Positions 1,441 to 46,779 of a stretch of DNA of 64,000 nt are shown here, one piece after another. This DNA comes from Dehalococcoidia bacterium (lineage in GTDB: Bacteria > Chloroflexota > Dehalococcoidia > Lucifugimonadales > CATQGZ01): positions 2,244 to 66,243 of the forward strand of contig CBDCXW010000005.1 of assembly GCA_965223945.1 (NCBI GenBank), written 5' to 3'. How positions within the stretch are numbered: the first letter of the stretch is position 1; each line of letters starts with the position of its first letter. The position numbers and the translations under genes are program-made. The notes beneath the pieces were generated by a model that was given only the letters and a program-made list of their open reading frames with translations, did no database searches and was not told the DNA's origin.

Positions 1441-2964
1441 ATGACCAACATCGCCTCCATCCTTGAACGACGCCTCGGGGCGTCCCGCGTCGAGCTGCTG
1501 CGGTCGGCCGGCCGCGCCGCGTCGGAGCTGGGCGTGCCGCTCTACCTGGTCGGTGGGTCCGTCCGCGACGCGCTGCTGGAGCGCCTACGGCACCCGTGTG
1601 ATACCCCTCACCCCAGCCCTCTCCCGCAAGGGGAGAGGGGGCCGGACGCTGGGGACCTGGACGTGAGCTTCTTCGTCGTTCCCGCGGAGGCGGGAACCCA
1701 GGGGCGGGGGCACGAAGATACCCCTCACCCCAACCCTCTCCCGCAAGGGGAGAGGGGGCGCCCACGGCGCCGGTACGTAGGGGACGGACTGGCCGAGGCG
1801 CTGGCGAAGGCGCTGGGAGGCGTGGCGTCGGACCGGTCGCAGTTCGGGACGGCGAAGCTGCGCGTGGGCGGCGTGTCGCTGGACCTGGTCATGGCCCGCC
1901 GGGAGACCTACGCCGCGCCGGGGGCGCTCCCGACGGTCGAGCCTGGATCGCTGGCCGACGACCTCGCACGGCGGGACTTCTCGATCAACGCGATGGCGGT
2001 GTCGCTGTCGGCGGAGTCGTGGGGCGACCTGGCGGACCCGTTCGACGGCGCGGGCGACCTGGAGCGCCGGGCCGTCAGGGTGCTGCACCCCGGCAGCTTT
2101 CGCGACGACGCGACGCGGCTGTTCCGGGCGGCGCGGTACGCGGGCAGGCTGGGGTTCGGGCTGGAGCCGGAGACGGAGCGGCTGGCGCGCGAGGGCGCGG
2201 CGTTCATCGACACGATCTCGGGCGACCGGGTGCGTCACGAGCTGGAGCGCATCTTCGAGGAGCCGCGGGCGGCGGACATCCTGCGGATAGCGGACGGCCT
2301 GGGCCTGCTGGGGGCGATACACCCGGCGCTGAGGCCGGCGGAGAGCCCGGAGGCCATCGAGGGCGAGCGGGGCCCGGCGATGCTGGCGGGGCTGGCGCTG
2401 GGGCTGTCGCCACAGGAGGCTGAGGAGGTCGCGGAGCGGCTGAACCTAGGCGCGGAGTGGGCGCGGGTCGTACGGGACACGGCGGCTGTGCGGGAGCTGC
2501 TGCCGGAGCTCGAAGCGGACCTCGCGCCGAGCCGCATATACCGGCTGCTGCACGGCAGGCACGAAGCGGCGCTGTCGGCAGCGCCCACGGCGCCGGTACG
2601 TATGGGGGAGACGCCCACGGCGCCGGTACGTAGGGGGGCAGCGCCCACGGCGCCGGTACGTAGGGGGGCGGCGCCCACGGCGCCGGTAGGTATGGGGGCA
2701 GAGCCCACGGCGGCGCCCACGGCGCCGGTAGGTAAAGGGGCGGCGGCGAACCTGCGGCTGTACCTGTCGCGGCTGCGGCACGTGTCGACGTCGCTGAGCG
2801 GCGGGGACATCGTCGCGATGGGAGTGCCCGAGGGGCCGAGGGTCGGCGAGGTGCTGCGGGAGCTGCTGGAGGCGCGGCTGGACGGGACGGTGGAGTCGGC
2901 GGAGGAGGAGCGGGAGCTGGCGTCGCGGCGCGCCCACGGCGGCGCCCACGGCGCCGGTAAGTAG
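1441..2964 (+). CDS. class II nucleotidyltransferase (CCA-adding enzyme / poly(A) polymerase family) carrying in-frame REP-derived insertions
   Basis: The N-terminal motif LYLVGGSVRDALLER...GDLDV matches the GGxVRDxLL...DxD head-domain signature. Downstream RDFSINAMAV and RVLHPGSFRDDATRLFRAARYA are typical of the family. The ORF is uninterrupted despite REP units at 1603-1641, 1678-1697 and 1719-1783 and a 30-nt tandem array at 2581-2740. The stop codon lies inside REP module M3. Confidence 0.75.
   Translation: MTNIASILERRLGASRVELLRSAGRAASELGVPLYLVGGSVRDALLERLRHPCDTPHPSPLPQGERGPDAGDLDVSFFVVPAEAGTQGRGHEDTPHPNPLPQGERGRPRRRYVGDGLAEALAKALGGVASDRSQFGTAKLRVGGVSLDLVMARRETYAAPGALPTVEPGSLADDLARRDFSINAMAVSLSAESWGDLADPFDGAGDLERRAVRVLHPGSFRDDATRLFRAARYAGRLGFGLEPETERLAREGAAFIDTISGDRVRHELERIFEEPRAADILRIADGLGLLGAIHPALRPAESPEAIEGERGPAMLAGLALGLSPQEAEEVAERLNLGAEWARVVRDTAAVRELLPELEADLAPSRIYRLLHGRHEAALSAAPTAPVRMGETPTAPVRRGAAPTAPVRRGAAPTAPVGMGAEPTAAPTAPVGKGAAANLRLYLSRLRHVSTSLSGGDIVAMGVPEGPRVGEVLRELLEARLDGTVESAEEERELASRRAHGGAHGAGK
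2581..2740 (+). repeat. tandem array of about 5 x 30 nt (REP module M3) inside the nucleotidyltransferase ORF
   Basis: GCGCCCACGGCGCCGGTACGTAGGGGGGCA-type units occupy 2581-2610, 2611-2640, 2641-2670 and 2671-2700, plus a rearranged unit at 2701-2740. They translate as (A/T)PTAPVR(R/M)G(A/E) repeats. Confidence 0.9.
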
Positions 2965-3040
2965 TATCACCCTCACCCCTGCCCTCTCCCGTCAAGGGAG
3001 AGGGGGTAGGAGCGGCCACGGCGCCGGTAGGTAGGGGGCG
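2929..3040. repeat. REP-like repeat cluster (M3-M3-M2-M3)
   Basis: GCGCCCACGGCGGCGCCCACGGCGCCGGTAAGTAG, then CACCCTCACCCCTGCCCTCTCCCGTCAAGGGAGAGGG, then GTAGGAGCGGCCACGGCGCCGGTAGGTAGGGG. Confidence 0.85.
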
Positions 3041-3086
3041 CTCGTGCTAAAATGGGCGGAGCTTTCGAACGCGCCCAGGAACGTGT

Positions 3087-3911
3087 GTGTTGGGGAACCC
3101 CCCGGTCAGAGTCAGAGCTTCCCAGTCGGGCCTTTTTGACGGGTTGAAGGACGTCGCACGGTCGTTCGCCAGGCCGCCGCTGTGGGTCACCCTCGGCTGG
3201 TACGACTTCATGCTGAGGTACAGACGGACGTACCTGGGACCGCTGTGGGAGGTGCTGGTCGTCGGGACGTGGGTGGTAGGCCTGGGCCTGCTGTTCGGGC
3301 AGCTGCTGGAGGAGTCGAAGGACGACTACCTGGTCTACCTCTCGGCGGGGGTGATCGTCTGGTCGTACATCTCGAGCACGCTGACGACTGGCGCGGCAGT
3401 TTTCACGTCGAACGCCAGGGCGATCTCGTCGATCAACAACCCCATGTTCACCTACGTGCTGCGCAACGTGGTGGAGCACTGGACGAAGCTGGCGGTGCAC
3501 CTGCCGATCCTGGTCGGGGTGCTGGCCTGGAGCGGCGAGTGGTCGGGCTGGCAGATGCTGTGGGCACTGCCGGGGCTGGCGATGCTGCTGGCGGCGTCGC
3601 TGTGGGCGGTGCCTCTGTTGGGGTTCGTCGGAGCACGGTACCGGGACCTGGCGCAGATGATCCGGGCGGGCATGCGGTTCCTGTTCTTCGCGACGCCGGT
3701 CTTCTGGTACGCGGACGGGCTGGGGGACCGCGATTTCCTGGCGCACCTGAACCCCTTCACGCACTACCTGGAGCTCGTCCGGGCGCCGCTGACGGGCGAG
3801 ACGGCGACGCTCGTGTCGTGGGCGGTGGTGGCGTCGATCAACGCGGCGGGCCTGGCGGCGTTCGCGGTGACGTACAGCCCCCTGCGGCGGCGGCTGACCC
3901 TGTGGATATGA
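3087..3911 (+). CDS. ABC-2 type polysaccharide export permease (Wzm/TagG/KpsM-like)
   Basis: 274-aa polytopic membrane ORF. The N-terminal segment WYDFMLRYRRTYLGPLWEVL is typical of ABC-2 exporters. Its stop overlaps the start of the downstream ATPase gene (ATGA). The GTG start at 3087 is uncertain. Confidence 0.8.
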   Translation: MLGNPPVRVRASQSGLFDGLKDVARSFARPPLWVTLGWYDFMLRYRRTYLGPLWEVLVVGTWVVGLGLLFGQLLEESKDDYLVYLSAGVIVWSYISSTLTTGAAVFTSNARAISSINNPMFTYVLRNVVEHWTKLAVHLPILVGVLAWSGEWSGWQMLWALPGLAMLLAASLWAVPLLGFVGARYRDLAQMIRAGMRFLFFATPVFWYADGLGDRDFLAHLNPFTHYLELVRAPLTGETATLVSWAVVASINAAGLAAFAVTYSPLRRRLTLWI

Positions 3912-4699
3912 GCATGGACAAAGACTTCGCGATCCGGTTGCGGGACCTGACTATGGAGCTGCCCACGTACGGGCGGGTGAAGCACCCGTCGTGGAACGGC
4001 CTCGGGGCGACGCAGGCGGGAGTGGGCGGACGGCTGAACTTCTCCGACGGCCGGGCGACTGTGACGGCGCTGGACGACGTGAGCGTCGAGATCGCCCGCC
4101 GGGAGCGGGTCGGCTTGATCGGTCTGAACGGCGCGGGGAAGAGCACGATGCTGCGGGTGATGGCGGGGATATACTACCCGACTCGCGGGACGGCGGAGTC
4201 GCGCGGCAGGGTGTCGACGCTGTTCTCGGAGTCGCTGGGCCTGAAGCCGGAGGCGACGGGCATCGAGAACATCATGCTGTCGGGCGTGTCGCTGGGGCTG
4301 ACGCACGGGCGGGTGAAGCAGATGATCCCTGAGATCGTGGAGTTCACGGAGCTCGGGGAGTACGTCCACATGCCGATGCGGACCTACTCGACGGGGATGC
4401 GGGCGCGGCTGGCGTTTGCGGTGGCGACGTCGATCAGGCCGGAGATACTGCTGATAGACGAGATCATCGGCGCGGGGGACATGCGCTTCCAGGCGAAGGT
4501 GAAGGAGCGGCTGGAGGACTTCATGGGGTCGGCGAACACGCTGGTCGTGGCCTCGCAGTCGGAGCAGGTGATCAGGGAGTTCTGCGACCGGGCGATACTG
4601 CTGGAGCGGGGCCGGGTGCGGATGTCGGGCGGCGTCGAGGAGGTGCTGGCGGAGCACCTGGGGAAGCACGGCAGGCGGCGGGGAGCGGGCCGACCGTGA
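3908..4699 (+). CDS. polysaccharide ABC exporter ATP-binding protein (Wzt/TagH/KpsT-like), short form without C-terminal carbohydrate-binding domain
   Basis: Walker A GLNGAGKST, signature YSTGMRARLAFA, Walker B ILLIDE. 263 aa from the ATG at 3908, which overlaps the permease stop. The longer 3182 ORF start lies in another frame over the permease and is rejected. Confidence 0.85.
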   Translation: MSMDKDFAIRLRDLTMELPTYGRVKHPSWNGLGATQAGVGGRLNFSDGRATVTALDDVSVEIARRERVGLIGLNGAGKSTMLRVMAGIYYPTRGTAESRGRVSTLFSESLGLKPEATGIENIMLSGVSLGLTHGRVKQMIPEIVEFTELGEYVHMPMRTYSTGMRARLAFAVATSIRPEILLIDEIIGAGDMRFQAKVKERLEDFMGSANTLVVASQSEQVIREFCDRAILLERGRVRMSGGVEEVLAEHLGKHGRRRGAGRP

Positions 4700-6807
4700 C
4701 GCACCAGCACTCGACGGAGGAAGGCGGGGCCGGGCTCGTGAGGGACCGGGTGTCGCAGCTTCAGGAGAGGATCGAAGGCCTCGAGCGCCAGGTCGAGCTG
4801 GACCGGATGGCACTGGCGCGTCTCCGCAAGAGCCTCGACAGCCGTGCGGGGGAGGTCCGGGTGCTGAGGCACCGCCTCCAGGCGACGCGTTCGAGCGCCT
4901 CGTTCCTCGCGGGCTCGGCGCTGGTGCAGGCCGCGAAGCAGCCGCACACCCTGTGGAAGCTTCCCTTCCAACTCCTCCGGCTGTACCGGTCGAGATCGAG
5001 GCCGACGGCGGGAACCGGCGACGGGAGCGACCCGAACGACCGGTACAAGGACCTTCCCCCAGAGCTCGCCCTGGACCCCTCGGAGTTCGTCAGCCACCCT
5101 CCCCTGCCGATACCCGACGCAAAGGGCAATGGCCCAACCGTGGCGGCCATCCTGGACACGTTCACTGAGTACTCGCTGCGCTATGAGGCGGACCTGCTGC
5201 TTGTGTCGCGGAACGACTGGCGAGCCGAGATGGAGAAGGCGCAGCCGGCGCTCCTGCTCGTAGAGTCGGCCTTCAGCGGCAATAACCGGGAATGGCGGCA
5301 CCTGATCGTCGATTATGAGACCGTCGGGGACAATCCGCTGCGGGAGCTGATCCTGTTCTGCCGCTCCGCGGGGATTCCGACCGTGTTCTGGAACAAGGAA
5401 GACCCGGCGCACTTCGACAACTTCATCGGGGCCGCCAGGGAGTTCGACCTCGTCTTTACGTCAGACGCCGACTGCGTTCCGGTATACAGGGAGGCTCTGG
5501 GACACGAACGGGTATATGTCCTACCATTCGCCGCGCAGCCGCGGATCCACAATCCGTCGAGTGAGGAGGGCTGGCCAAGCTATCCGGTGTGCTTTGCCGG
5601 AAGCTGGGTGGAATACAGATACCCCGACCGCGCCGAGTCGCTCCGTCACCTGCTCGACCCTGCCGTCCCACTCGGCCTGCACATCTTCGACCGCAACCTC
5701 ACGCGACGGGACCTGGGGCCGCACTATCGCTTTCCCGACCAGTATAGGGAGGCGATCAAGGGAACCCTCACCTACGAGGAGATGCTGACGGTCTACCGGT
5801 GCTATGACGTGCTCCTGAACGTCAACACCGTAAGCGACTCCCCAACGATGTTCGCCCGCCGAGTCTTCGAAAGCCTGGCGTGCGGGACGCCCGTCATCTC
5901 ATCAGAGTCGGTCGCCATAAGCCGGATGCTCGGAGAGCACGTCAGGATATCCCGTAGCAGGGAGGACACCGAACGCCACCTCCTGGACCTGATGGGAGAT
6001 GAGGAAGCCCGTGTCCGGGAGGGTCACCTGGCCTACCGCCACGTACATGAAAACCACACCTACCGGCTACGCATAGACGAGGTCTTCCGCAGGACCGGCC
6101 TCGAGCCGCCCGCCTCAGAGCAGCCGTCGGTGAGCGTCCTCATGCCTACCAAGCGCCCTGAGAACGTGGCACGGTGCCTCGACAACTTCAAGAAGCAGAC
6201 GTACCCGGCCAAGGATCTCATCCTCATTCTGAACAATGCAGATTTCGACCTCGACGCTATAAGGAAGGATGTCGAGCTCATTCCCAACGTGCAGGTGCTC
6301 CACATGGACGGACGCACGACTCTGGGACACTGCCTAAACCGCGGCGTCGAAGCGGCGTCTGGCGAATACATCGCGAAGATGGACGACGACGACCACTATG
6401 GGGAGCGGTACCTCTCGGACAGCGTCCTCGCGGCCTCGTTCTCGGACGCGGAGGTCGTCGGCAAGGGGGCCTTCTTCATGTACTTCGAAGAGTCCGATAC
6501 CACTGCCCTGACGGAAGTGACACGGGAGCACACGTTCACTTCTTTTGTAACGGGCGGCACTCTGTTGATACGAGCCGAAGTAGCAAGGGAGAACCCTTTC
6601 GACTCCATTTCGCTAAGGGAGGACACGAACTTCCTTCACGCGGCAGCACAGGCCGGCTGCAAGATCTACTCCGCGGATAGGTTCAACTTCGTACGAGTGC
6701 GGACGCGACGGCTATCAAATCATGCAGACCAGACCCCGGACGCCGGATTCCTGAAAAAGTGCCGAAACCGGACACAGGGCCTCGACCTCGAGCGTGTCCT
6801 GATATGA
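4696..6807 (+). CDS. multidomain glycosyltransferase: N-terminal coiled coil, CgeB-like (GT1-type) domain, C-terminal GT2 domain
   Basis: 703 aa, GTG start overlapping the upstream stop (GTGA). Coiled coil RVSQLQERIEGLERQVELDRMALARLRK. The central region (FWNKEDP..FDLVFTSDADCV..NVNTV.DSPTMFARRVFESLACGTPVIS) resembles CgeB/DUF3880-type glycosyltransferases. The C-terminal SVSVLMPTKRPENV...AKMDDDDHYGERY is a GT2 fold with a DxD motif. Confidence 0.75.
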   Translation: MTHQHSTEEGGAGLVRDRVSQLQERIEGLERQVELDRMALARLRKSLDSRAGEVRVLRHRLQATRSSASFLAGSALVQAAKQPHTLWKLPFQLLRLYRSRSRPTAGTGDGSDPNDRYKDLPPELALDPSEFVSHPPLPIPDAKGNGPTVAAILDTFTEYSLRYEADLLLVSRNDWRAEMEKAQPALLLVESAFSGNNREWRHLIVDYETVGDNPLRELILFCRSAGIPTVFWNKEDPAHFDNFIGAAREFDLVFTSDADCVPVYREALGHERVYVLPFAAQPRIHNPSSEEGWPSYPVCFAGSWVEYRYPDRAESLRHLLDPAVPLGLHIFDRNLTRRDLGPHYRFPDQYREAIKGTLTYEEMLTVYRCYDVLLNVNTVSDSPTMFARRVFESLACGTPVISSESVAISRMLGEHVRISRSREDTERHLLDLMGDEEARVREGHLAYRHVHENHTYRLRIDEVFRRTGLEPPASEQPSVSVLMPTKRPENVARCLDNFKKQTYPAKDLILILNNADFDLDAIRKDVELIPNVQVLHMDGRTTLGHCLNRGVEAASGEYIAKMDDDDHYGERYLSDSVLAASFSDAEVVGKGAFFMYFEESDTTALTEVTREHTFTSFVTGGTLLIRAEVARENPFDSISLREDTNFLHAAAQAGCKIYSADRFNFVRVRTRRLSNHADQTPDAGFLKKCRNRTQGLDLERVLI

Positions 6808-15163: not shown

Positions 15164-15211
15164 CCGCCCGACCGCCCCGCGAATCAGGCCGCTCGACCGG
15201 GTGCAGCCGTC

Positions 15212-16453
15212 ATGAAGATCGCCGTACTCACGCAGAACTTCGCGCCGGAGATGGGCGCGACGGCAACACGTCTGTACGAGCTGACCACCCGGCTGGCGTC
15301 CCGGGGGCACACCGTGACAGTGATCACGGCGATGCCCAACTATCCCACGGGGCGTGTATTCCAGAGCTACCGGGGCAGGCTGCGCGCCGAGGAGGAGATG
15401 GACGGCGTCCGCGTGATTCGGACGTGGATTCACCCGTCCGAGTCGTCGAAGCCCCTTCCCAGGCTTCTGAGCTACCTGTCGTTCATGCTGTCGAGCCTGG
15501 CGCTCGGTTGGAGGGGCCTGGGCAGGCAGGACGTCCTCCTGTTCGACAGTCCGCCGCTGTTTCTGGTCCCATCCGGCCTGGCGCTTGGCCGAATTGCGCG
15601 GGCGCGCGTCGTCATGAATGTATCGGACATCTGGCCAGACGCCGCCGAGCGTCTGCAGCTGCCGCTTGGCAGATGGACGCGGCGGCTCCTTCGGGGCCTC
15701 GAAGAAGCCGGGTACAGAAGGTCGGACGCGGTGACTACGACTACATGCACAGCCCGTGAACAGATCAGTCGGAGGTTCCCGCAGATAGACACGGCTGTCA
15801 TCTCCAACGGCGTTGACTTGGACCTGTTCCGTCCCTCCCTCAGAAATGAGGCTGTCCGCAGCTCGCTGGGAGTCGGTCCTGACGACTTCCTGGTGGGCTA
15901 CTGCGGACTGCACGGTCTGTTCCAGGGGTTGGAGGTCGTGGTCGAGGCTGCAGCCAGGCTCGCTGGGCGTCCAGGGATCAAGTTCGTCATGGTTGGCGAC
16001 GGACCGTCGAAACGGTCGCTCGTTTCGCTTGCGGACAGCAAGGGCGTGACCAATCTGCGTTTCGAGGACACAGTGCCGCGTCCCATGGTCGCGTCGATAC
16101 TGGCCTCCTGCGACGCCGCCGTGGTGCCGCTAGCGGCGGAGCTGCCGGGCACAATGCCGTCCAAGGTGTACGAGGCACTAGCGTCCGGTGTCCCACTGGT
16201 CGTCACCAAGGGATGTGAGGCGGAGGGTCTGGTCAATGAGCACGGCTTGGGACGTGTCTTCACCCCGCTCGACTCGGGAGAGCTCGCCTCAATCATCGTC
16301 GAGCTGACGGACAGTTCCGACAGCATCGATGAGATGAGCAAGAGGTGCCGGGAGCTGTCCGAACGGTTCGACCTGGACCGAATCGCCTCCCACGCCGAGG
16401 AGGTGTTGACGGCGGTATCGGAGGGCAGGCCGCTGCCGGCTTCCGGGCGCTGA
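15212..16453 (+). CDS. glycosyltransferase family 4 (WbuB-like)
   Basis: MKIAVLTQNFAPEMGATATRLYELTTRLASRGHTVTVITAMPNYPTGRV is typical of WbuB-type GT4 enzymes. C-terminal EX7E-like region PSKVYEALASGVPLV. Confidence 0.8.
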   Translation: MKIAVLTQNFAPEMGATATRLYELTTRLASRGHTVTVITAMPNYPTGRVFQSYRGRLRAEEEMDGVRVIRTWIHPSESSKPLPRLLSYLSFMLSSLALGWRGLGRQDVLLFDSPPLFLVPSGLALGRIARARVVMNVSDIWPDAAERLQLPLGRWTRRLLRGLEEAGYRRSDAVTTTTCTAREQISRRFPQIDTAVISNGVDLDLFRPSLRNEAVRSSLGVGPDDFLVGYCGLHGLFQGLEVVVEAAARLAGRPGIKFVMVGDGPSKRSLVSLADSKGVTNLRFEDTVPRPMVASILASCDAAVVPLAAELPGTMPSKVYEALASGVPLVVTKGCEAEGLVNEHGLGRVFTPLDSGELASIIVELTDSSDSIDEMSKRCRELSERFDLDRIASHAEEVLTAVSEGRPLPASGR

Positions 16454-16463
16454 GCTTCAAGGA

Positions 16464-18236
16464 ATGAACGCGATCTGGCGCGTATCGAAATACGGTTTTA
16501 ACTACCCCTGGCTCTTCGGCGGGGCCTACTCGATGAACGTCGCCTCGACGCTCTCCGCCCTGGCGGTCCCAGCACTCATAGGAAACGCGATAGACCGCGC
16601 CCTGGGAAGCGGCAGCCAGATGGAGGTCATGCTTGCCGGACTGGCAATCCTGGGCGCCGGACTGCTCCGCGGGGTTTTTGCATACGTGCAGATTTACCTG
16701 ACCGGCTGGATGACCGGACTGGTAGCGAGAGACCTCCAAGTCCGACTGCTCGACAGGCTCCAGCACCTCAGCTTCGGCTTTCACGACCGGCACCGGACCG
16801 GGGACCTTATGTCGAGGGCTACGGCCGACGTCGACGCGGCGGGTGAGTTCCTGGAGCGCGGCCTGATCCAGACAACTCGGACAGCACTATGGTTCGGCGT
16901 GGTTGCGGTCATCAAGCTGGTCACTAACTGGCAGCTGGCTTTGATAGCGATGGCGTTTCTGCCGCTGTCGACATGGGTGCTGGGGTCGCTCTCGATCAAG
17001 GCCGGCGATGCATTCACCAGGGCCCAGGTCGAGACCGGAAAGATGACGGCAGTGCTCCAGGAGAGCATCGTCGGGATGCGGTTGGCTAAGGCGTTCGGCG
17101 CCGCCTCTCACGAACGAAGAGGGTTCAGGTTGGCATCGGCCGAGGTCACCCGTGCTAACTATAGTGCCTACAAGATACAGCTCTCTCGCGTTACGTTGTC
17201 GACCCATCTGTTCATCGCGGCCGTGGGGGCGCTGCTCTGGTTTGGAGCGCGGGAGGTGGTGTTCGGTCGGCTCACCGAGGGGGAGCTGGCCATGTTCCTG
17301 CTGTACATGGCGCTGCTGCGCCAGCCTGTCCAGACAACCGGCTCGATCGTCGCGGTCTTCGCGGCGACCCGGGCCTCCGGGCGGCGGCTCTTCGAAATAC
17401 TGGATGCCGAGTCGCCCGTGCCGGAGCGCCCGGATGCGCGTCGAGTCGCCAGAACCCAGGGCCGGGTCGCGTTCGAGGGGGTCTCTTTCAGCTACGACTC
17501 CGACTCGGGAACACTCCATAACGTCGACTTCCAAGTCCAGGCGGGGCAGACGGTCGCTCTGCTTGGTGCGCCCGGGTCGGGCAAGACCAGCGTCGTCCAC
17601 CTAGTCCCAAGGTTCTACGACGCAACGTCCGGCCGGGTGACAGTTGACGGAGCGGACGTCAGAGACCTCAGGCTCACGGACCTCCGACGCAACATCGGCA
17701 TAGTGCTCCAGGACGTCTTCATTTTCGGAGCTTCATTCACAGACAACCTATCCTACGGGACCGAGGGAGCGACCGAAGATGAGATCAGGGAGGCCGCAAG
17801 GGTGGCACAGCTTCACGACTTCATCAAGGGCCTGCCCGATAAGTACGAAACGTGGGTCGGGGAGCGCGGCGTGAAGCTGTCCGGGGGCCAGCGGCAGCGG
17901 CTCGCGATAGCGCGCACCATCCTGATCGACCCAGCCATCCTGATACTCGACGACTCCACCTCCAGCGTCGACGTGGAGACGGAGCACAAACTGCAACAGG
18001 CGCTCGCGGAGGTGATAAAGGGACGCACGACCTTCGTCATCGCTCACCGCCTGTCGACGGTCCGCAACGCCGATCTCATTCTCGTGATGGACAGGGGTCG
18101 AGTCGCGGAGCGAGGCACGCACGCGGAGCTTCTGAGCGCGGGCGGACTCTACCGGCGCATCCACGACCTCCAGCTGGTCCCCCAGGACATGGACGCTCCT
18201 CTGATGGACTCGCTGCCTTCTCAGGAGAAGACGTAA
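16464..18236 (+). CDS. ABC exporter, fused permease/ATPase (MsbA-like, type I exporter half-transporter)
   Basis: 590 aa. Six-helix TMD followed by an NBD with Walker A GAPGSGKTS, signature LSGGQRQRLAIAR and Walker B ILILDD. Confidence 0.9.
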   Translation: MNAIWRVSKYGFNYPWLFGGAYSMNVASTLSALAVPALIGNAIDRALGSGSQMEVMLAGLAILGAGLLRGVFAYVQIYLTGWMTGLVARDLQVRLLDRLQHLSFGFHDRHRTGDLMSRATADVDAAGEFLERGLIQTTRTALWFGVVAVIKLVTNWQLALIAMAFLPLSTWVLGSLSIKAGDAFTRAQVETGKMTAVLQESIVGMRLAKAFGAASHERRGFRLASAEVTRANYSAYKIQLSRVTLSTHLFIAAVGALLWFGAREVVFGRLTEGELAMFLLYMALLRQPVQTTGSIVAVFAATRASGRRLFEILDAESPVPERPDARRVARTQGRVAFEGVSFSYDSDSGTLHNVDFQVQAGQTVALLGAPGSGKTSVVHLVPRFYDATSGRVTVDGADVRDLRLTDLRRNIGIVLQDVFIFGASFTDNLSYGTEGATEDEIREAARVAQLHDFIKGLPDKYETWVGERGVKLSGGQRQRLAIARTILIDPAILILDDSTSSVDVETEHKLQQALAEVIKGRTTFVIAHRLSTVRNADLILVMDRGRVAERGTHAELLSAGGLYRRIHDLQLVPQDMDAPLMDSLPSQEKT

Positions 18237-18239
18237 GAG

Positions 18240-19310
18240 ATGAGCACTCGACCAATCGTGCTGGACGACCGTCGGGATCAGAGGCTCTACGACCATAGCG
18301 TCGTCCTGCGGCTGGCGAAGTACCTGAGGGGGCATGGACGCCTCGTGACTATGGGCCTGGCCTCCATCTGCGTATATTCCGCGACCGTCGGCACACTGCC
18401 CTGGCTGGTCAAGCTGGTTGTGGACTCCTACGTCCAGGCACGGGACGTGTCCGCCATAGACCTGGCCGGGGCCGCGTATCTGATCATCGCGACGGTTCAG
18501 ATGGCCACGAGCTATTTTCACAGCCGCCTGAACGCCTTCGTAAGTCTGCAGATGATACAGAACCTCAGGGACGACGCCTTCGATCACATACACAGGCTTT
18601 CCATGTCCTTCTTCGACCGCAACGAGGCCGGACGAGTGATGTCGCGCGTGCAGAACGACACCAGGGAGGTGGAGGGCTTCGTCTCGCTTGCCGTCATGAG
18701 CCTGGCCGACATCCTGAGCATAGCCGGCATCGTCGCGGCGATGTTCATAATGAGCCCAGTGCTGGCGACTATCACCCTTCTCTTCGTGCCTGTCCTCATC
18801 GGAGGCACGTCGATCTGGCAGCGCCTGTTCCGGGAGCCGGTATCAGAGTGGAGACGCGCGTTTGCCGATGTCAACGCCCATCTCCAGGAAACCATATCCG
18901 GGATCAGGGTCGTCCAGAGTCTGAACAGGGAGCGCGATAACCTGCGGCGGTTTACCGGGGTCGCCAACGACAAGGTAGCCGCCCTGCTGAACATGATGCG
19001 GTACCGGAGCGTGCTGCTGCCGTCGATCACAGTCGTGCAGGCCCTTGGAATGGCGCTCGTAGTGACCTTCGGCGGCCTTCTGGTGCTGAACGGCTCCATC
19101 GGTGCGGGCGTCGTGATAGCGTTCGCGATCTACGTCGAGAGGTTCTTCGGGCCGCTCGGCAGCCTCCAGAACCGGTATGGCAGCCTCCACGGAGCGATGG
19201 CCGCGGGCTCGCGCGTCTTGAGCTCCTGGACATCAAGCCAGATATCTCAGACCCGCCCGGAGCCGCCAAGATGCCGCCCGTCAAGGGACAGGTCCACTTC
19301 GAGGGCGTAG
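18240..19310 (+). CDS. ABC exporter half-transporter, transmembrane-domain part of a frameshifted gene
   Basis: The TMD ORF runs normally to ...GSLHGAMAAGSRV (about 19217), then into out-of-frame sequence. The expected continuation LELLDIKPDISDPP is in the -1 frame. Confidence 0.7.
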   Translation: MSTRPIVLDDRRDQRLYDHSVVLRLAKYLRGHGRLVTMGLASICVYSATVGTLPWLVKLVVDSYVQARDVSAIDLAGAAYLIIATVQMATSYFHSRLNAFVSLQMIQNLRDDAFDHIHRLSMSFFDRNEAGRVMSRVQNDTREVEGFVSLAVMSLADILSIAGIVAAMFIMSPVLATITLLFVPVLIGGTSIWQRLFREPVSEWRRAFADVNAHLQETISGIRVVQSLNRERDNLRRFTGVANDKVAALLNMMRYRSVLLPSITVVQALGMALVVTFGGLLVLNGSIGAGVVIAFAIYVERFFGPLGSLQNRYGSLHGAMAAGSRVLSSWTSSQISQTRPEPPRCRPSRDRSTSRA

Positions 19311-20014
19311 GCTTCGAATACCAGCCCGCCGCCCCGGTGCTCCAAGACGTAGATCTGACCGTAGAGCCCGGACAGACCGTCGCGATCGTCGGTCCTACAG
19401 GCGCGGGCAAGACCACGCTCGTGTCTCTGCTGCTCAGGCTCTACGAAACTACGTCCGGAAGGGTCCTCGTCGACGGACACGATGTCCGACACGTCCAACG
19501 CGACTCCCTGGTACACCAGACCAGCATCGTGATGCAGGAGCCGGTGCTCTTCACTGGGACCATCAGGGAGAACATCCGATACAGCCACGATGAGGTGACA
19601 GACGAGGATGTAGAGCGTGCGGCGAGGGTCGTCGGAGCGCACGAATTCATCGAGAGGCTGCCTGGGGGCTACGATACGGAGCTCCAGGAGCGTGGCGGGA
19701 ACCTGAGCCTGGGTCAGCGGCAGCTGGTCAGCTTCGCGCGAGCCCTGGCTGCAGACCCCCGGATACTGGTGCTGGACGAAGCGACCGCGTACGTGGACAC
19801 CTACACCGAGATGCTGATTCAGCGGGGTCTTCGGGAGTTGCTGAAGGGCCGGACGTCTCTGGTTATCGCCCACCGGCTCTCGACGGTCCGTACTGCCGAC
19901 AAGATCGTGGTCATGGACCAGGGGCGGATAGCCGAGCAGGGGACACACGACGAGTTAGTCGCCGCAGGCGGCCTCTACGCCAGGCTCCTGTCGTTCAGCG
20001 AGGGCAATCGGTAA
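19271..20014 (+). CDS. ABC exporter half-transporter, nucleotide-binding-domain part of the same frameshifted gene
   Basis: Walker A GPTGAGKTT, signature LSLGQRQLVSFAR, Walker B ILVLDEATA. This frame stays open upstream of the ATG back to about 19202 and reads RVLELLDIKPDISDPPGAAK-type linker sequence. Confidence 0.7.
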   Translation: MPPVKGQVHFEGVGFEYQPAAPVLQDVDLTVEPGQTVAIVGPTGAGKTTLVSLLLRLYETTSGRVLVDGHDVRHVQRDSLVHQTSIVMQEPVLFTGTIRENIRYSHDEVTDEDVERAARVVGAHEFIERLPGGYDTELQERGGNLSLGQRQLVSFARALAADPRILVLDEATAYVDTYTEMLIQRGLRELLKGRTSLVIAHRLSTVRTADKIVVMDQGRIAEQGTHDELVAAGGLYARLLSFSEGNR

Positions 20015-37411: not shown

Positions 37412-38677
37412 TGTATAGACCGGGGACATAGGTTACACATGTTCGGAGACATGGGTTACACCATTAGGCATGGTAATTCTGTTCAGGAGGATGCCCATGC
37501 CATGGAGGGTGGAAACTGTCATGTCTCAACGCAAAGAGTTCGTCGCTCTGGCGCGGTCCGAGGGAGTGATCATGAGCGAACTGTGTTTGCGCAGTGGGAT
37601 CAGCCGCAAGACTGGCTACAAGTGGCTGAGACGATACCTTGAAGGCGGAGAGCAGCGTCTGGATGATCTCCCGAAGCGCCCTCATCACTCCCCGAACCGG
37701 ACGAGCGACGACATGGAGCAGCTCGTCGTAGACCTTCGCCGGGAGCATCCCACTAAGGGAGGACACGTGCTGGCCAGGATACTCAAGGATCGTGGACACA
37801 ACAGTGTGCCGTCCAAGAGCACGATCACGGCCATCCTCAGACGACATCAACTTATCGAGCCATCTGAGAGTCTCAAGCACAAGCCGTATAAGCGCTTCGA
37901 GCACGAGCGGCCCAACCAGCTGTGGCAGATGGACTTCAAGGGGCATATCCCTGTCGTCAGCGGTGGACGTTGCCACCCGCTGACGGTCCTGGACGACCAT
38001 TCGAGGTTCTCCCTGGGTGTGAGGGCTTGTGCAGACGAGAGGACTCAGACCGTCCATGACCATCTTACGTCCATCTTCAGCCACTACGGCATGCCCAATA
38101 CGATACTGGTTGACAACGGCTCTCCCTGGGGCAGCGACGTTGACCACCCCTTCACCCCACTGACAGTCTGGCTGGTCCAACTGGGAGTCAGAGTGGTCCA
38201 CAGTAGGCCATACCACCCCCAGACCCTAGGCAAGCTCGAGCGCTTCCACAGGTCCCTCAAGACTGAGCTGCTCCAGGGAAGCAGATACACCGACCTGTCC
38301 CACTGCCAGAGCAGCTTCGATGGATGGCGAGACTTTTACAACCTCCAGCGTCCTCATCACGCCCTGGACCTCAATACGCCTGCCAGCCGATACACCGTCA
38401 GCCCTCGGCCTTTCCCGGAGACGCTTCCGACCGTCGACTACGACACTGACGACCAGGTACGCTCTGTAGATGTCAACGGCCGAATATCCTTCCTGGGCAG
38501 ATCATTCCCCGTCGGTAAAGCCTTCAGAGGCAAGAGGGTCGCTCTAAGGCCCACACCCACTGACGGCACATGGAAGGTCTTTTTCTCCGTCCAGTCCATC
38601 GCTACCATAGATCTCAATCAATAGAATGTGTAACCCATGTCCCCGAACAACTGTTACCCATCTCTCCGGTCTGTACA
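37412..38677 (+). mobile_element. IS481-family insertion sequence, 1266 bp, 50-bp imperfect terminal inverted repeats, 5-bp target duplication CCCGT
   Basis: IRL TGTATAGACCGGGGACATAGGTTACA... and IRR (reverse complement) TGTACAGACCGGAGAGATGGGTAACA... match at 42/50 positions. Direct repeats CCCGT lie at 37407-37411 and 38678-38682. Contains a single DDE transposase ORF. Confidence 0.9.
37497..38624 (+). CDS. IS481-family transposase (HTH + DDE integrase core)
   Basis: N-terminal HTH (SQRKEFVALARSEGVIMSELCLRSGISRKTGYKWLRRY). DDE core blocks WQMDFKG, ILVDNGSPW and YHPQTLGKLERFHRSLKTE. Start uncertain (37470, 37491 or 37497). Confidence 0.9.
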   Translation: MPWRVETVMSQRKEFVALARSEGVIMSELCLRSGISRKTGYKWLRRYLEGGEQRLDDLPKRPHHSPNRTSDDMEQLVVDLRREHPTKGGHVLARILKDRGHNSVPSKSTITAILRRHQLIEPSESLKHKPYKRFEHERPNQLWQMDFKGHIPVVSGGRCHPLTVLDDHSRFSLGVRACADERTQTVHDHLTSIFSHYGMPNTILVDNGSPWGSDVDHPFTPLTVWLVQLGVRVVHSRPYHPQTLGKLERFHRSLKTELLQGSRYTDLSHCQSSFDGWRDFYNLQRPHHALDLNTPASRYTVSPRPFPETLPTVDYDTDDQVRSVDVNGRISFLGRSFPVGKAFRGKRVALRPTPTDGTWKVFFSVQSIATIDLNQ

Positions 38678-44384: not shown

Positions 44385-45581
44385 GGATGCTCTGAATAAG
44401 TCCCGGTGGTTTGCGGGATAGTAACATAGGGCCAAGGCCTGAAGACGTGGGAGGCGAGGCAATGAACCAGCCGACGTTTGCGGACTTGGACTACGAGAGC
44501 AAGAAGCGAAAGACTCGCAGGGAGAAGTTCCTTGAGCGCATGGATGGACTGATCCCGTGGGAAGAGTTGGAAGAGCGCATCCGACCGTTCTATCCCAATG
44601 CTGGCCGAGGTCGGCGTCCCTACGAGTTGTCGGCGATGCTTCGCATACACTGCGTGCAGTTGTTCTACAACCTGAGCGACCCTGGGATGGAGGACATGCT
44701 CTACGAGGTCGAATCGGTGAGGCGGTTCGTAGGGCTGAGACTGCCTGGGCCGCTGCCGGACGAGACGACGATTCTGAACTTCCGCCACCTGCTGGAAGAG
44801 CATGCGTTAGGCTCGGGTCTGTTCGAGGAGATCAACCGCTATCTGGAGTCCAAGGGTCTCCGTCTTCAGGAGGGGACGATAGTGGACGCGAGCATCATAG
44901 CGGCGCCCTCATCGACGAAGAATCGGGCTAAAGAGCGCGACCCCGAGATGCACCAGACGAAGAAGGGTAACGAGTGGCACTTCGGGATGAAGGTGCACAT
45001 CGGTGTGGACTCGCAGACGGGAGTGGTGCACAGCATGACCACGACATCTGCGAACGTGCATGACCTGACTGAGTTGCCCCGGTTGCTGCACGGTGGGGAG
45101 TCTCAGGTGTGGGGAGATGCTGGGTATCAGGGAGTTGACAAGAGGCCGGGCAACCGGGGCTTGGATGTGGAGTGGCAGGTCGCGATGAGGCCCGGCCAGC
45201 GTCGGAAGCTGGAGCCTGAGAGTCCTGAGGCGGTGTCGGAGAAGCGCAAAGCGTCGGTCAGAGCTAAGGTGGAGCATCCGTTCCTGTACATCAAGCGGCA
45301 CTTCGGCTACGCCAAGGTCCGCTACAGGGGACTGTCCAAGAACACGCAGCGGCTGATGACGCTGCTGGGGTTTGCCAACTTGATGAGGGCCGAACAGTAC
45401 CTGGCGGCGTGAAACCTTGTATAAGTGCGCCCAAAATCAGGCCTAACGGCGGCGAAACGCCCTGTCAGGGCCGGTTGTAGGCCGAGATTAACCCCCACCA
45501 CGGCGCCATAAGGCAATTCAACGCCCCCAAAACCACTCCGGTCAACTCGGCCCAGCCTGAAGCCGATTGTTCAGAGCATCC
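44385..45581 (+). mobile_element. IS5-family insertion sequence, 1197 bp, flanked by 4-bp CTAG target duplication
   Basis: Terminal inverted repeats GGATGCTCTGAATAAG / GGATGCTCTGAACAAT (reverse complement) have 12 perfect terminal bp. CTAG lies at 44381-44384 and 45582-45585. Size and YTAR-type target fit the IS5 group. Confidence 0.85.
44462..45412 (+). CDS. IS5-family DDE transposase
   Basis: N-terminal MNQPTFADLDYESKKRKTRREKFLERMDGLIPW and GRRPYELSAMLRIHCVQLFYNLSDPGMED are hallmark IS5 blocks. DDE core has DASII.AP, GDAGYQG and KVEHPFLYIKRHFGY.KVRYRGL.KN. Confidence 0.9.
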   Translation: MNQPTFADLDYESKKRKTRREKFLERMDGLIPWEELEERIRPFYPNAGRGRRPYELSAMLRIHCVQLFYNLSDPGMEDMLYEVESVRRFVGLRLPGPLPDETTILNFRHLLEEHALGSGLFEEINRYLESKGLRLQEGTIVDASIIAAPSSTKNRAKERDPEMHQTKKGNEWHFGMKVHIGVDSQTGVVHSMTTTSANVHDLTELPRLLHGGESQVWGDAGYQGVDKRPGNRGLDVEWQVAMRPGQRRKLEPESPEAVSEKRKASVRAKVEHPFLYIKRHFGYAKVRYRGLSKNTQRLMTLLGFANLMRAEQYLAA

Positions 45582-45942: not shown

Positions 45943-46779
45943 ATGTTGGAGCGAGACCGCGAAGCTATTGACTATGTCCTTCACGAAGGCCGGGAGAACG
46001 ACGTAAAGTTCATCCGTCTCTGGTTCACGGACATTCTCGGGAATCTCAAGGGCTTCGCGATAACGATCGAGGAGCTGGAGAGCGCCATGACAAGGGGCAT
46101 GGGGTTCGACGGCTCGACCATAGAGGGGTTCGCACGCTCGTCCGAGCGCGACCTCTACGCCCTTCCGGACCCGAACACCTTCGCCATTCTTCCGTGGCGT
46201 CCCCGCACCAACGCGGTCGCGAGGATGTTCTGCGACATAGTCACGCCGGACGACGAACCCTTCGAGGGAGACCCTAGATTCGTTCTCAGGCAGAACCTGG
46301 AGCGTGCCGCCGCGCTCGGCTACACCAACTACGTTGGGCCGGAGATCGAGTACTTCTACTTCAAGGACTCCACCGATACGCAGAGCCTCGACCAGGGAGG
46401 CTACTTCGATCAGGACTCCAGCGACTCGTCGACCGATCTCAGGCGCCAGACCGTCCTGACTCTTGAAGAGCTTGGCATACCCGTCGAGTCCAGCCACCAC
46501 GAGGTGGCCCCGAGCCAGCACGAGATCGACCTGCCGCCGCCACCGGCCGAGTCGAACGTGTGCGACCTGCCCGAGAGCGAGCGCGACTCTCTGGGGATCG
46601 ACCGCCTACCAGAGAACCTCTGGGAGGCCATCAAGGTGACGGAGAACAGCGAGCTCGTCCATCGGGCTCTGGGTGAAGAAGTCGCCCAGAGCTTCATCGA
46701 GAACAAGAAGATCGAGTGGGACCGGTCCCACTCGGAGGTCAGCGAATTCGAGAAGGAGAGATATATCCCGGTACTGTAG
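45943..46779 (+). CDS. glutamine synthetase type I-like ORF with in-frame deletion of the catalytic core (probable pseudogene or non-catalytic remnant)
   Basis: Colinear with GS-I from the N-terminus through SSHHEVAPSQHEIDL. It then jumps directly to the C-terminal LPENLWEAIKV...IENKKIEWDRSHSEVSEFEKERY. About 180 residues are missing, including the KPxxGxxGSGMH ATP-binding and NSYKRL blocks. 278 aa versus about 445-470 aa expected. Confidence 0.75.
   Translation: MLERDREAIDYVLHEGRENDVKFIRLWFTDILGNLKGFAITIEELESAMTRGMGFDGSTIEGFARSSERDLYALPDPNTFAILPWRPRTNAVARMFCDIVTPDDEPFEGDPRFVLRQNLERAAALGYTNYVGPEIEYFYFKDSTDTQSLDQGGYFDQDSSDSSTDLRRQTVLTLEELGIPVESSHHEVAPSQHEIDLPPPPAESNVCDLPESERDSLGIDRLPENLWEAIKVTENSELVHRALGEEVAQSFIENKKIEWDRSHSEVSEFEKERYIPVL

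Follow-up and report, generated by a model that had tools for sequence, protein, structure and literature searches.

An ABC-transporter-dependent gene cassette conserved across Dehalococcoidia, probably for a ManNAcA-containing cell-surface glycan, and its interruption by an IS110-family element

The closest described systems to the locus reported here place a chain terminator on a coiled-coil ruler and combine it with a polymerase. This is the arrangement of Klebsiella O7 ORF6, in which a methyltransferase(-kinase), a coiled coil and two glycosyltransferase (GT) modules follow one another, and likewise of O12 WbbB and of Escherichia coli O8/O9a WbdD (PMC11231755). In Geobacillus, WsaE caps an S-layer glycan through its N-terminal methyltransferase; Wzm/Wzt serve as the exporter of this glycan, and the cluster has overlapping genes (PMC2943079). 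Here, we describe a locus at positions 3087–16453 of a 64 kb stretch of high-GC DNA (about 60–71%) from a Dehalococcoidia bacterium (contig CBDCXW010000005.1; the whole stretch is referred to as the window). The locus is a compact cassette that is conserved across Dehalococcoidia and that probably directs the ABC (ATP-binding cassette) transporter-dependent assembly of a cell-surface glycan containing N-acetylmannosaminuronic acid (ManNAcA). The original prediction, made from the letters of the window, had held that the combination of genes matches no known locus type. This was too strong, because the layout, with a putative ruler, corresponds to that of terminator, ruler and polymerase (PMC11231755, PMC2943079), and two features had been overlooked: an insertion sequence (IS) within the cassette and a methyltransferase domain in one of its glycosyltransferases. 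The analysis drew on Pfam, NCBIfam cut-offs, Rfam, AlphaFold2 (AF2), Foldseek, a tblastn map and a neighbour-joining tree.

The eight genes of the cassette lie on the forward strand (Table 1). Pfam and NCBIfam bear out the gene types named in the original prediction, namely a Wzm-like permease, a Wzt-like ATPase, two giant glycosyltransferases (GT-A and GT-B), a heparinase-like lipoprotein, WecB, WecC and a GT4-family glycosyltransferase. The large proteins are glycosyltransferases rather than proteins of non-glycan function, in keeping with the proposal of an ABC-transporter-dependent glycan locus with WecB and WecC. The five stop/start overlaps that had been described are all found in the sequence: ATGA at 3908 joins the Wzm stop to the Wzt start, GTGA at 4696 the end of Wzt to the start of GT-A, ATGA at 6804 the end of GT-A to the start of GT-B and GTGA at 12781 the end of the heparinase-like frame to the start of WecB, while GTGGCTGA at 13892–13899 is an 8-nt overlap between WecB and WecC. 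The continuity of the chain did not survive, however. An IS110-family element interrupts the heparinase-like gene between 11193 and 11194, and the GTGA at 12781, which had been read as a link from gene to gene, joins merely a 96-codon 3′ remnant (12496–12784) to wecB.

The layout of terminator, putative ruler and polymerase is seen in GT-B, the domains of which in Pfam are an N-terminal S-adenosylmethionine (SAM) methyltransferase (residues ∼30–200) and, after a helical region (residues 207–347), DUF3880 with Glyco_trans_1_2 (the GT-B-type module; ∼397–720) and Glycos_transf_2 (the GT2 module; ∼726–910). A putative chain-modifying domain is therefore present at one end of the protein, and the two GT modules stand C-terminal to the spacer. 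The methyltransferase is of the class I SAM type with an invariant glycine-rich motif (VLDVGCSEG), and a weak match to the WbdD methyltransferase was obtained (E = 0.002). The GT2 module contains a conserved DxD motif (DDDD at 812–815). The AF2 model of GT-B has a mean predicted local distance difference test (pLDDT) score of 57.9, with values of 75–89 in the methyltransferase domain, and Foldseek searches with it matched class I methyltransferases only; the low-confidence model gave no structural placement of the GT-B-type module. Three helices (residues 207–258, 265–314 and 317–347; pLDDT 33–70) are predicted between the methyltransferase and a proline-rich linker that leads into the GT modules. 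Residues 221–315 contain no proline and one glycine, have a charged or Gln content of 40–54% and, by a crude measure, an elevated hydrophobic periodicity of 3.5 residues. This region, of roughly 100–140 residues, looks like a coiled coil and is a putative ruler. A conserved amphipathic segment follows the helices (S316…W336-K337-L338-P339, invariant), and we suspect that it associates with the membrane.

GT-A has the same DUF3880, Glyco_trans_1_2 and Glycos_transf_2 domains as GT-B without the methyltransferase, preceded by a short N-terminal helical segment with heptad periodicity (residues 1–60), and its DNA is 78% identical to that of the C-terminal part of GT-B. In a neighbour-joining tree without support values, the two proteins fall in two old paralogue clades (GT-A in that labelled p1), and genomes with a single copy retain either one or the other paralogue. 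The methyltransferase domain has been lost, with the GT modules kept, from GT-A and from the p1 paralogues of two related loci (L018 and L020). More than 500 database homologues have the 953-residue architecture of GT-B. An exhaustive search with the 564-residue dual-GT module returned 2,282 clusters at 50% identity (E ≤ 1e-30), in which the module is nearly always C-terminal and lies behind N-terminal regions of widely differing length. In two related loci GT-B is followed, at the position of the heparinase-like gene, by a stand-alone SAM methyltransferase identified with Pfam (L008:13058–14137 and L019:12870–13913). The L008 protein has a tail that resembles the helical N-terminus of GT-A, and methyltransferase and tail together are reminiscent of a separate terminator of the WbdD type. 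An ORF (open reading frame) of the same size follows GT-B in L011 (13042–14121); the Pfam scans covered L008 and L019.

The domain layout of GT-B resembles those of O7 ORF6 and O12 WbbB, a likeness established from their description rather than by sequence comparison. In all of them, an N-terminal modifying domain (a methyltransferase in O7 ORF6) is followed by a helical spacer and, at the C-terminus, by two GT modules. Next to the gene lie wzm/wzt, an extra stand-alone GT is encoded and the initiator is, presumably also here, encoded elsewhere (PMC11231755). The differences lie in the modules and in the setting. GT-B has neither a kinase domain nor a carbohydrate-binding module (CBM) between the methyltransferase and the helices, and it combines a CgeB-like GT-B-type module (Glyco_trans_1_2/DUF3880) with a GT2 module, where the Klebsiella proteins have two GT2 or GT102/103 modules. 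The polymer would contain ManNAcA rather than rhamnose/ribose or Rha/GlcNAc, and the host belongs to the Dehalococcoidia rather than being a lipopolysaccharide-bearing proteobacterium and has a Wzt without a CBM. The cluster of Geobacillus stearothermophilus NRS 2004/3a shares a Gram-positive-type host, Wzm/Wzt export, overlapping stop/start codons and a protein, WsaE, with an N-terminal methyltransferase and two GT domains that both polymerizes and caps (PMC2943079). It differs in making a poly-rhamnan from dTDP-Rha and in encoding the rml genes, the initiating enzyme WsaP and the oligosaccharyltransferase WsaB, whereas wecB and wecC are the only precursor genes of the present cassette and the window yielded neither an initiator nor a transferase to protein.

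The exporter is represented by adjacent genes for an ABC-2 permease and an ATPase inside the glycosyltransferase cluster, as expected for the ABC pathway. Wzm matches ABC2_membrane in Pfam (E = 7.7e-11), it scores best among NCBIfam models against the galactan export permease Wzm/RfbD (under the cut-off of that model) and the alignments of its relatives begin at residue 2. In Wzt the sole Pfam domain is ABC_tran, and the ORF stops at the end of the nucleotide-binding domain; its top NCBIfam matches, the galactan exporter Wzt/RfbE and TagH, are both under their cut-offs. No C-terminal carbohydrate-binding domain, the mark of a cap-reading Wzt of the O8/O9a/O12 type, was found with Pfam on the Wzt of the window, and none of the Wzt proteins in its clade has a C-terminal extension. 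The short form described in the original prediction is therefore confirmed for this clade but does not extend to a sister clade: in 12 of the 22 related Dehalococcoidia loci, Wzt has a C-terminal extension of 252–332 residues. The extension consists of leucine-rich repeats (LRR_1, LRR_4 and LRR_8) in all three copies scanned with Pfam (L005, L010 and L018) and occupies the position at which the O8/O9a/O12 Wzt has its CBM. A full-text literature search found no description of an LRR-fused Wzt. In two loci, no stop codon separates the Wzt frame from the first methyltransferase–GT–GT paralogue (L003:2–3385 and L017:6393–9977), and the continuous frame may encode an ATPase–polymerase fusion of about 1,190 residues. 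The comparison with the WbdD–WbdA–Wzt system of E. coli O8/O9a (Klebsiella O5/O3) is similar: both have a methyltransferase on a ruler (putative here), a multidomain polymerase and ABC export. In O8/O9a, however, terminator and polymerase are separate proteins, and the Wzt has a cap-reading C-terminal module that is missing in the window and has LRR repeats as its counterpart in the sister clade.

WecB and WecC are identified at the level of NCBIfam equivalogs, as had been proposed. WecB scores 481 bits against TIGR00236 (cut-off 210) and matches Epimerase_2 in Pfam (E = 3.6e-119), and WecC scores 535.7 bits against NF008286 (cut-off 459) and has three UDPG_MGDP_dh domains. Because the locus is fed by these two enzymes, its product is expected to be a ManNAcA-containing polymer. 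The GT4 protein matches Glyco_trans_4_4, Glycos_transf_1 and related Pfam models and scores 191.7 bits against the NCBIfam WcaI family, under the cut-off of 276. Membership of the Bacillus teichuronic acid (Tua) system was rejected (TuaC, TuaD, TuaG and TuaH models at 25–123 bits against cut-offs of 400–700), as was that of the colanic acid system, for which the WcaI and WcaA scores are far under the cut-offs. The teichuronic acid of Micrococcus luteus is a ManNAcA-Glc disaccharide polymer of the Gram-positive wall. There, and in enterobacterial common antigen (ECA; WecB/WecC/WecG), Vibrio polysaccharide (VPS; VpsA/VpsB/VpsK; PMC13463779) and the Staphylococcus aureus capsular polysaccharides CP5/8, the supply of UDP-ManNAcA by WecB and WecC is the same as that predicted here. 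ECA, VPS and CP5/8 are, in contrast, Wzx/Wzy-dependent, and none of those proteins was found in the window; ECA and VPS use the GT26 enzymes WecG and VpsK, where a GT4 protein and the dual-GT module are encoded here.

The original prediction had recognized neither a Wzx/Wzy pair nor an initiating phosphoglycosyltransferase, and none was found among the ORFs scanned (Pfam for those of at least 200 residues and hydropathy for those of at least 120 residues). Across the 64 kb, Pfam scans of nearly all ORFs in the larger class gave no phosphoglycosyltransferase, Wzx, Wzy, ligase or LytR–CpsA–Psr (LCP) protein, and hydropathy analysis of all ORFs in the wider class gave no polytopic membrane protein besides Wzm and the ABC exporters. 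No WecA/WbaP-type priming enzyme was found in the window or in the Pfam-scanned recurrent flanking families of the related loci, a screen that covered transferases of at least 200 residues, with the shorter PglC-type enzymes falling outside it. In model systems the priming enzyme is often encoded elsewhere, so its absence from the window is compatible with the pathway. Two dual-GT proteins and a GT4 protein without Wzx/Wzy are what the cytoplasmic assembly of the ABC pathway would predict.

When one genome was scanned for each species, 32 loci were obtained, of which 22 come from metagenome-assembled genomes (MAGs) titled Dehalococcoidia and one is a short fragment from Chloroflexota. In the tblastn map, the order Wzm–Wzt–(GT paralogue)–GT-B–(heparinase-like gene, present or absent)–WecB–WecC–GT4 is kept on one strand in 20 full Dehalococcoidia species loci, with 58–85% protein identity, and two further partial loci truncated by contig ends are consistent with it. 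The GT4 gene follows wecC in all 20 full loci. The association of wecB/wecC with the transporter, on which the earlier proposal depended, is therefore conserved. The flanks of the related loci hold housekeeping genes unlike those of the window (DnaJ, MetE-like, PrkA, AhpC, major facilitator superfamily and tetratricopeptide repeat proteins). As the flanks differ while the order is kept, the conserved unit is exactly 3087–16453.

Outside the Dehalococcoidia, the dual-GT module also has WecB as a neighbour, in some cases together with WecC. This is so in Rhodobacterales, Rhodospirillales, Gammaproteobacteria (there with Wzm/Wzt) and Mailhella (Desulfovibrionaceae; with Wzt), and in Peribacillus it occurs with WecB only. 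No GT4 homologue was found at these distant loci in the tblastn map. This recurrence beside WecB/WecC across phyla argues that the module itself uses the WecB/WecC product. The dual-GT proteins of alphaproteobacterial and gammaproteobacterial MAGs (L024, L026, L028, L029 and L031) are 48–55% identical to those of Dehalococcoidia, and the lyase-like protein of L024 is 54% identical to its Dehalococcoidia counterpart. These high cross-phylum identities suggest that parts of the cassette have been transferred horizontally.

The heparinase-like gene carries a Hepar_II_III_C domain (Pfam) and encodes an N-terminal signal peptide with a lipobox-like Cys (MAALLLAALVPMALGC). Its intact form, of 545 residues, is encoded by two near-identical metagenome contigs without the IS. 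One is L001 (ENA ERZ25069191), which encodes an identical 953-residue GT-B and lacks the 1,302 bp of the IS. There, the gene is a single ORF of 545 codons (L001:8978–10615; product P0121) with a stop that overlaps wecB. The product of the 5′ part in the window is identical to residues 1–450 of P0121, and the 3′ remnant is collinear with L001:10328–10615. The AF2 model of P0121 (pLDDT 90.6) has the α/α-toroid and β-sandwich fold of the PL12 family of polysaccharide lyases (PLs), with heparinase III as the top Foldseek matches (5jmd, E = 1e-22; 4fnv; 4mmh), followed by uronate lyases of PL17, PL15 and PL33 (E = 1e-22 to 1e-13 overall). Residues N183-H184 and Y237-H238 are conserved and align in the family profile with two segments of heparinase III (4mmh), GNHRLF and SPIYH, which we take to be the site of the catalytic residues. 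Sequence identity to the structural matches is 13–16%; a search of the PDB with the single sequence gave no match, whereas profile and fold searches did. P0121 thus shares with heparinase III (PL12) and with the PL15/PL17 alginate lyases the fold, the aligned NH and YH motifs and a secreted or lipid-anchored location, and shares with AlgL-type cluster lyases an embedding in a biosynthetic operon. It differs from the PL12, PL15 and PL17 enzymes in its low sequence identity, in a substrate that would be a ManNAcA polymer and in being dispensable in about one half of the loci compared. The occurrence of such a uronate-lyase fold next to a pathway for UDP-ManNAcA would fit a polymer with 4-linked ManNAcA. 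Of the related loci, 12 have the gene, always between GT-B and WecB, and 10 lack it; one homologue has an S-layer homology (SLH) domain. In L014 (13374–16785) the gene is independently split by a 3.4-kb insert that encodes an IS1595-type transposase, a P63C-domain protein and a DNA methylase–HNH fusion.

In the window, the gene is split after codon 450, which separates the last 95 residues (strands of the β-sandwich) from the remainder, and is a pseudogene in this genome as a result. The recombinase of the inserted element (ORF 11311–12480) has the DEDD_Tnp_IS110 (PF01548) and Transposase_20 (PF02371) domains and scores 180.7 bits against NF033542, the IS110 family RNA-guided transposase (cut-off 140). 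L001 and the window are 99.7–99.96% identical on both sides of the IS, and another sample contains a further allele free of the IS (L036). L001, L035 and L036 all show the empty site, with 99.7–100% flank identity. The insertion is therefore recent and polymorphic. Its junctions are exact, with positions 11193 and 12496 of the window both corresponding to L001 10327; they share a single C and are precise with respect to the empty site, as in the IS110 family. No terminal inverted repeats were found, the ends are not complementary and there is no multi-base target duplication. The IS has the orientation of the operon, and an ORF that starts inside it (12419–12784) reads in frame into the lyase-like remnant.

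The IS-free L001 allele has a lesion of its own, a 2-nt insertion with clustered substitutions (L001:4250–4273 against window ∼5125–5140) that shifts the frame of GT-A and leaves two pieces, of 143 and 555 residues. GT-A is intact in the IS-bearing window, so a different lesion is present in each allele. L001 also has an unrelated extra ∼75 bp between wzm and wzt (L001:2974–3048).

From the observed family memberships, gene order, conservation, predicted lyase-like fold and IS insertion we infer a pathway, together with its substrates, cap, chain length and final acceptor. WecB and WecC, identified as equivalogs, would convert UDP-GlcNAc to UDP-ManNAcA. A phosphoglycosyltransferase encoded outside the window would prime polyprenyl phosphate, to which the GT4 protein may add an adaptor sugar. 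To judge from their domains and from the neighbourhood of WecB/WecC across phyla, GT-A and GT-B would polymerize a ManNAcA-including repeat on the cytoplasmic face. By analogy with WbdD, O7 ORF6 and WsaE, the methyltransferase of GT-B, at the far end of the spacer, would methylate the non-reducing end, stop growth and set the chain length. Wzm and Wzt would then export the lipid-linked chain, the Wzt of the window's clade having no extra substrate-reading domain. As an accessory step, the extracytoplasmic PL12-like lipoprotein would trim or remodel the uronic acid polymer, a step presumably lost from this genome with the recent IS110 insertion after codon 450, which leaves the frames of the other seven genes intact. 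The design of terminator, ruler and dual GT is already known, and the Dehalococcoidia would be a new lineage for it.

Several points weigh against this reading. The model of GT-B is poor as a whole, and the coiled coil has been judged from predicted helices and the crude periodicity measure. A sequence search against solved structures found no relative of the GT-B-type module. The donors and acceptors of the five GT modules, the enzyme activity of all members and the chemistry of the glycan are predictions from sequence. A terminal cap is normally paired with a cap-reading Wzt domain, which is missing from the Wzt of the window, and the methyltransferase could modify each repeat rather than the chain end. 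The IS upstream of wecB–wecC–GT4 may be polar, in which case the pathway could be silent in the strain. Among the ORFs scanned in the window there is no initiating transferase, ligase or LCP enzyme to point to the acceptor of the glycan, and a promoter and terminator scan of 2800–16800 was uninformative, giving fewer sites than in shuffled sequences.

Four rival explanations were weighed. The GT-B methyltransferase might decorate every repeat, with the helical region as an oligomerization or membrane-association element that does not set length. The lack of a cap-reading domain in the Wzt of the window's clade would suit this, as would the many genomes that have two methyltransferase paralogues, some with a stand-alone one in addition, which exceeds the need of a single cap; methylation by WsaE in vitro is, moreover, independent of chain length (PMC2943079). 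We consider this possible but doubtful, since the characterized systems all use the modifying domain distal to the coiled coil as a terminator (PMC11231755), and since the loss of the methyltransferase but not of the GT modules from GT-A and from the L018 and L020 p1 paralogues argues that methylation is not needed in each polymerization cycle. It is unlikely that the cassette is dead or crippled in this strain, a decaying locus without a polymer in which the IS also uncouples or terminates the expression of wecB, wecC and the GT4 gene. The IS does lie directly upstream of wecB, the start of which was coupled to the lyase stop, and elsewhere in the window there are further transposase genes (at least two) and an ABC exporter that is split; alleles without the IS are found alongside in this set of metagenomes, and L001, although free of the IS, itself has the GT-A frameshift. 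The other seven genes are nevertheless full-length and 99.7–100% identical to those of the IS-free alleles, the IS is in the operon orientation with no terminator-like site above chance, the ORF that runs from inside it to the GTGA junction could preserve coupling and the natural absence of the lyase gene from 10 related loci shows that it is dispensable.

Lyases and uronate C5-epimerases share a fold, acid/base motifs and a proton-abstraction step, and the lipoprotein gene is a variable accessory of the cassette. Both points would agree with a lipoprotein that is a polymer-level C5-epimerase or other modifier (for example converting ManNAcA to L-GulNAcA, the L-gulo uronate, after export), such that loci with and without the gene make different glycans. 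There is a precedent in natural ManNAcA-derived L-GulNAcA, which needs a C5-epimerase; in Vibrio VPS the proposed enzyme is VpsJ, with a predicted fold like that of GlcNAc 2-epimerase (PMC13463779). The close structural matches of P0121 are, however, all lyases (PL12, PL15, PL17 and PL33). Biosynthetic clusters for uronic acid polymers commonly include a lyase, such as AlgL for alginate, and we regard an epimerase or other modifier as distinctly unlikely. The adjacency of WecB/WecC could also be due to chance, with the two enzymes feeding, for example, a ManNAc linkage unit while the large GTs build a ManNAcA-free polymer. The enzyme specificities are predicted, and the Peribacillus module has WecB without WecC. 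Yet the order GT-B–(heparinase-like gene)–WecB–WecC–GT4 is invariant in 20 full loci with differing flanks, the pairing recurs in four other lineages and a gene with a uronate-lyase fold is placed exactly between GT-B and WecB. Chance adjacency is disfavoured and appears highly improbable. The assembly of a ManNAcA-containing glycan with GT-B as putative terminator is the reading that we retain as probable.

The inserted IS was examined further for its guides. The left end of the element is long (213 nt) and is a candidate bridge RNA, while the right end measures only 15 nt. A second copy, L034-A, is 98.8% identical with the same ends, and L034 also contains a sibling, L034-B, that is 82% identical. 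When the three left ends are aligned, the scaffold proves to be conserved, its stems carry compensatory changes and two guide slots vary; the guides were placed with the order and orientation rules for IS110-group bridge RNAs (PMC11208160). The donor-type sequences ATAGGAGC and CATCGCAG match the element's own right and left ends. The slots of the A type, shared by the window copy and L034-A (GTAGTGGGAC and CCTCGTG), match the flanks of L034-A at 10/10 and 6/7 positions and the window's own insertion site, AATCGAAGA[C]CGGTTGAA, at only 3/10 and 3/7. The B-type slots of the sibling (CTTCGAGGAC and TTCAACCGG) match that site at 7/10 and 9/9, and no target-guide match to the site in the heparinase-like gene was found in the left end of the inserted copy itself. 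A third subtype comprises ten copies with identical left ends in several site classes, of which L040 and L042 are at …GA[C]CGGTT sites like that of the window. Rfam gave no match, either for the window as a whole at gathering scores or for the region of the IS at E ≤ 1, and the exact left end had no match in a metagenome scan.

The element resembles IS621 and the IS110 group in its DEDD recombinase, the lack of inverted repeats and the long left and short right ends, and resembles IS621 in having two variable candidate target slots and candidate donor guides in the same order and orientation. It differs in a shared core that is apparently a single C rather than CT, and in the location of the window copy at a site that fits the guides of a sibling rather than its own. 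These matches are most simply explained if a sibling with the same donor ends acted as guide in trans, the B type being known here from L034; later recombination between IS copies is the alternative. If cross-guidance is true, a B-type and not an A-type bridge RNA would drive the A-type donor into AATCGAAGACCGGTTGAA. A wider proposal would join this to the glycan: an undescribed methyl-capped ManNAcA glycan common to a Dehalococcoidia clade, the Wzt CBM being replaced by a cytoplasmic LRR domain in the sister clade and lost in the window's clade, with the IS110 element delivered in trans by the bridge RNA of a sibling as a natural case of cross-guidance. This proposal is tentative, and all of it holding together is unlikely.

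Table 1. Features of the cassette, of the inserted element and of the loci compared (window positions unless a locus is given)
Feature	Position	Strand	Description
wzm	3087–3911	+	ABC-2 type permease, 274 aa
wzt	3908–4699	+	ABC ATPase, short form, 263 aa
GT-A	4696–6807	+	Dual glycosyltransferase, 703 aa
GT-B	6804–9665	+	Methyltransferase + helices + dual glycosyltransferase, 953 aa
Heparinase II/III-like (PL12-like) lipoprotein gene, 5′ part	9844–11193	+	Codons 1–450
IS110-family insertion sequence	11194–12495	+	1,302 bp
IS left end	11194–11406	+	Candidate bridge RNA
Left target guide (LTG) slot	11235–11244		GTAGTGGGAC
Right target guide (RTG) slot	11260–11266		CCTCGTG
Left donor guide (LDG) slot	11329–11338		
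Right donor guide (RDG) slot	11350–11357		
IS110-family DEDD recombinase	11407–12480	+	357 aa
Heparinase-like gene, 3′ remnant	12496–12784	+	Codons 451–545
wecB	12781–13899	+	Non-hydrolysing UDP-GlcNAc 2-epimerase, 372 aa
wecC	13892–15163	+	UDP-ManNAc 6-dehydrogenase, 423 aa
GT4 gene	15212–16453	+	GT4-family glycosyltransferase, WcaI/WbuB-like, 413 aa
LRR-extended Wzt	L005:5603–7141; L018:6092–7774; L010:5330–7084		Nine further loci extended
IS left ends compared	Window 11194–11406; L034:1288–1504; L034:1049–1265; L037–L046	L034:1049–1265 minus	
Hairpin repeat copies	87–109; 917–972; 1043–1098; 1617–1642; 1734–1786; 2970–3040; also 37401		

The surroundings of the cassette contain further features. 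Two MsbA-like ABC exporters follow it directly (16464–20014). These were considered as a PglK-type flippase of the locus and rejected, as they are absent from all related loci, in which PrkA, major facilitator superfamily, tetratricopeptide repeat and other proteins follow GT4. The second exporter is split into a membrane domain (18240–19310) and an ATPase domain (19271–20014) in overlapping frames, which indicates a probable frameshift near 19230–19310. Transposase genes are also found at 37470–38624 (IS481-like, rve integrase) and 44411–45412 (DDE_Tnp_1), and a 278-residue glutamine synthetase ORF with an incomplete match to the catalytic domain (45943–46779) lies ∼530 bp downstream of the latter. 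The genome appears to be rich in IS elements. In the first 3 kb, a repeat of ∼55–70 bp with the hairpin core CCCTCTCCCGTCAAGGGAGAGGG occurs in six copies. Two of these are in frame within a CCA-adding/poly(A) polymerase-like ORF (1441–2964), past its GGSVRD motif, and encode DTPHPSPLPQGERG. This repeat-bearing upstream region is only 93% identical to L001, with 13 gap openings, compared with 99.7% elsewhere.

Literature searches for DUF3880, Dehalococcoidia envelope glycans, a heparinase-like gene beside wecB/wecC and an LRR-fused Wzt found no description of this system. For annotation, the heparinase-like gene of this genome is to be treated as a pseudogene, and the locus should be drawn without the ABC exporters downstream. 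The copies of the IS110 element are natural test cases for trans-acting bridge RNAs. The family of the dual-GT module is large, with about 2,300 clusters at 50% identity, and the GT-B-type part of the module has no solved structure at the sequence level. The variable parts of the locus show how such a cassette evolves: the lyase gene is present, absent or broken by an IS, there are one or two polymerase paralogues with or without a methyltransferase, and Wzt is short, LRR-fused or possibly GT-fused. If the analogy holds, the terminator–ruler–polymerase design would extend beyond lipopolysaccharide O antigens and the S-layer glycans of Bacillales to the Chloroflexota. With eight genes conserved in at least 20 species, the cassette offers a target for heterologous expression and glycan analysis in the uncultured, high-GC Dehalococcoidia.

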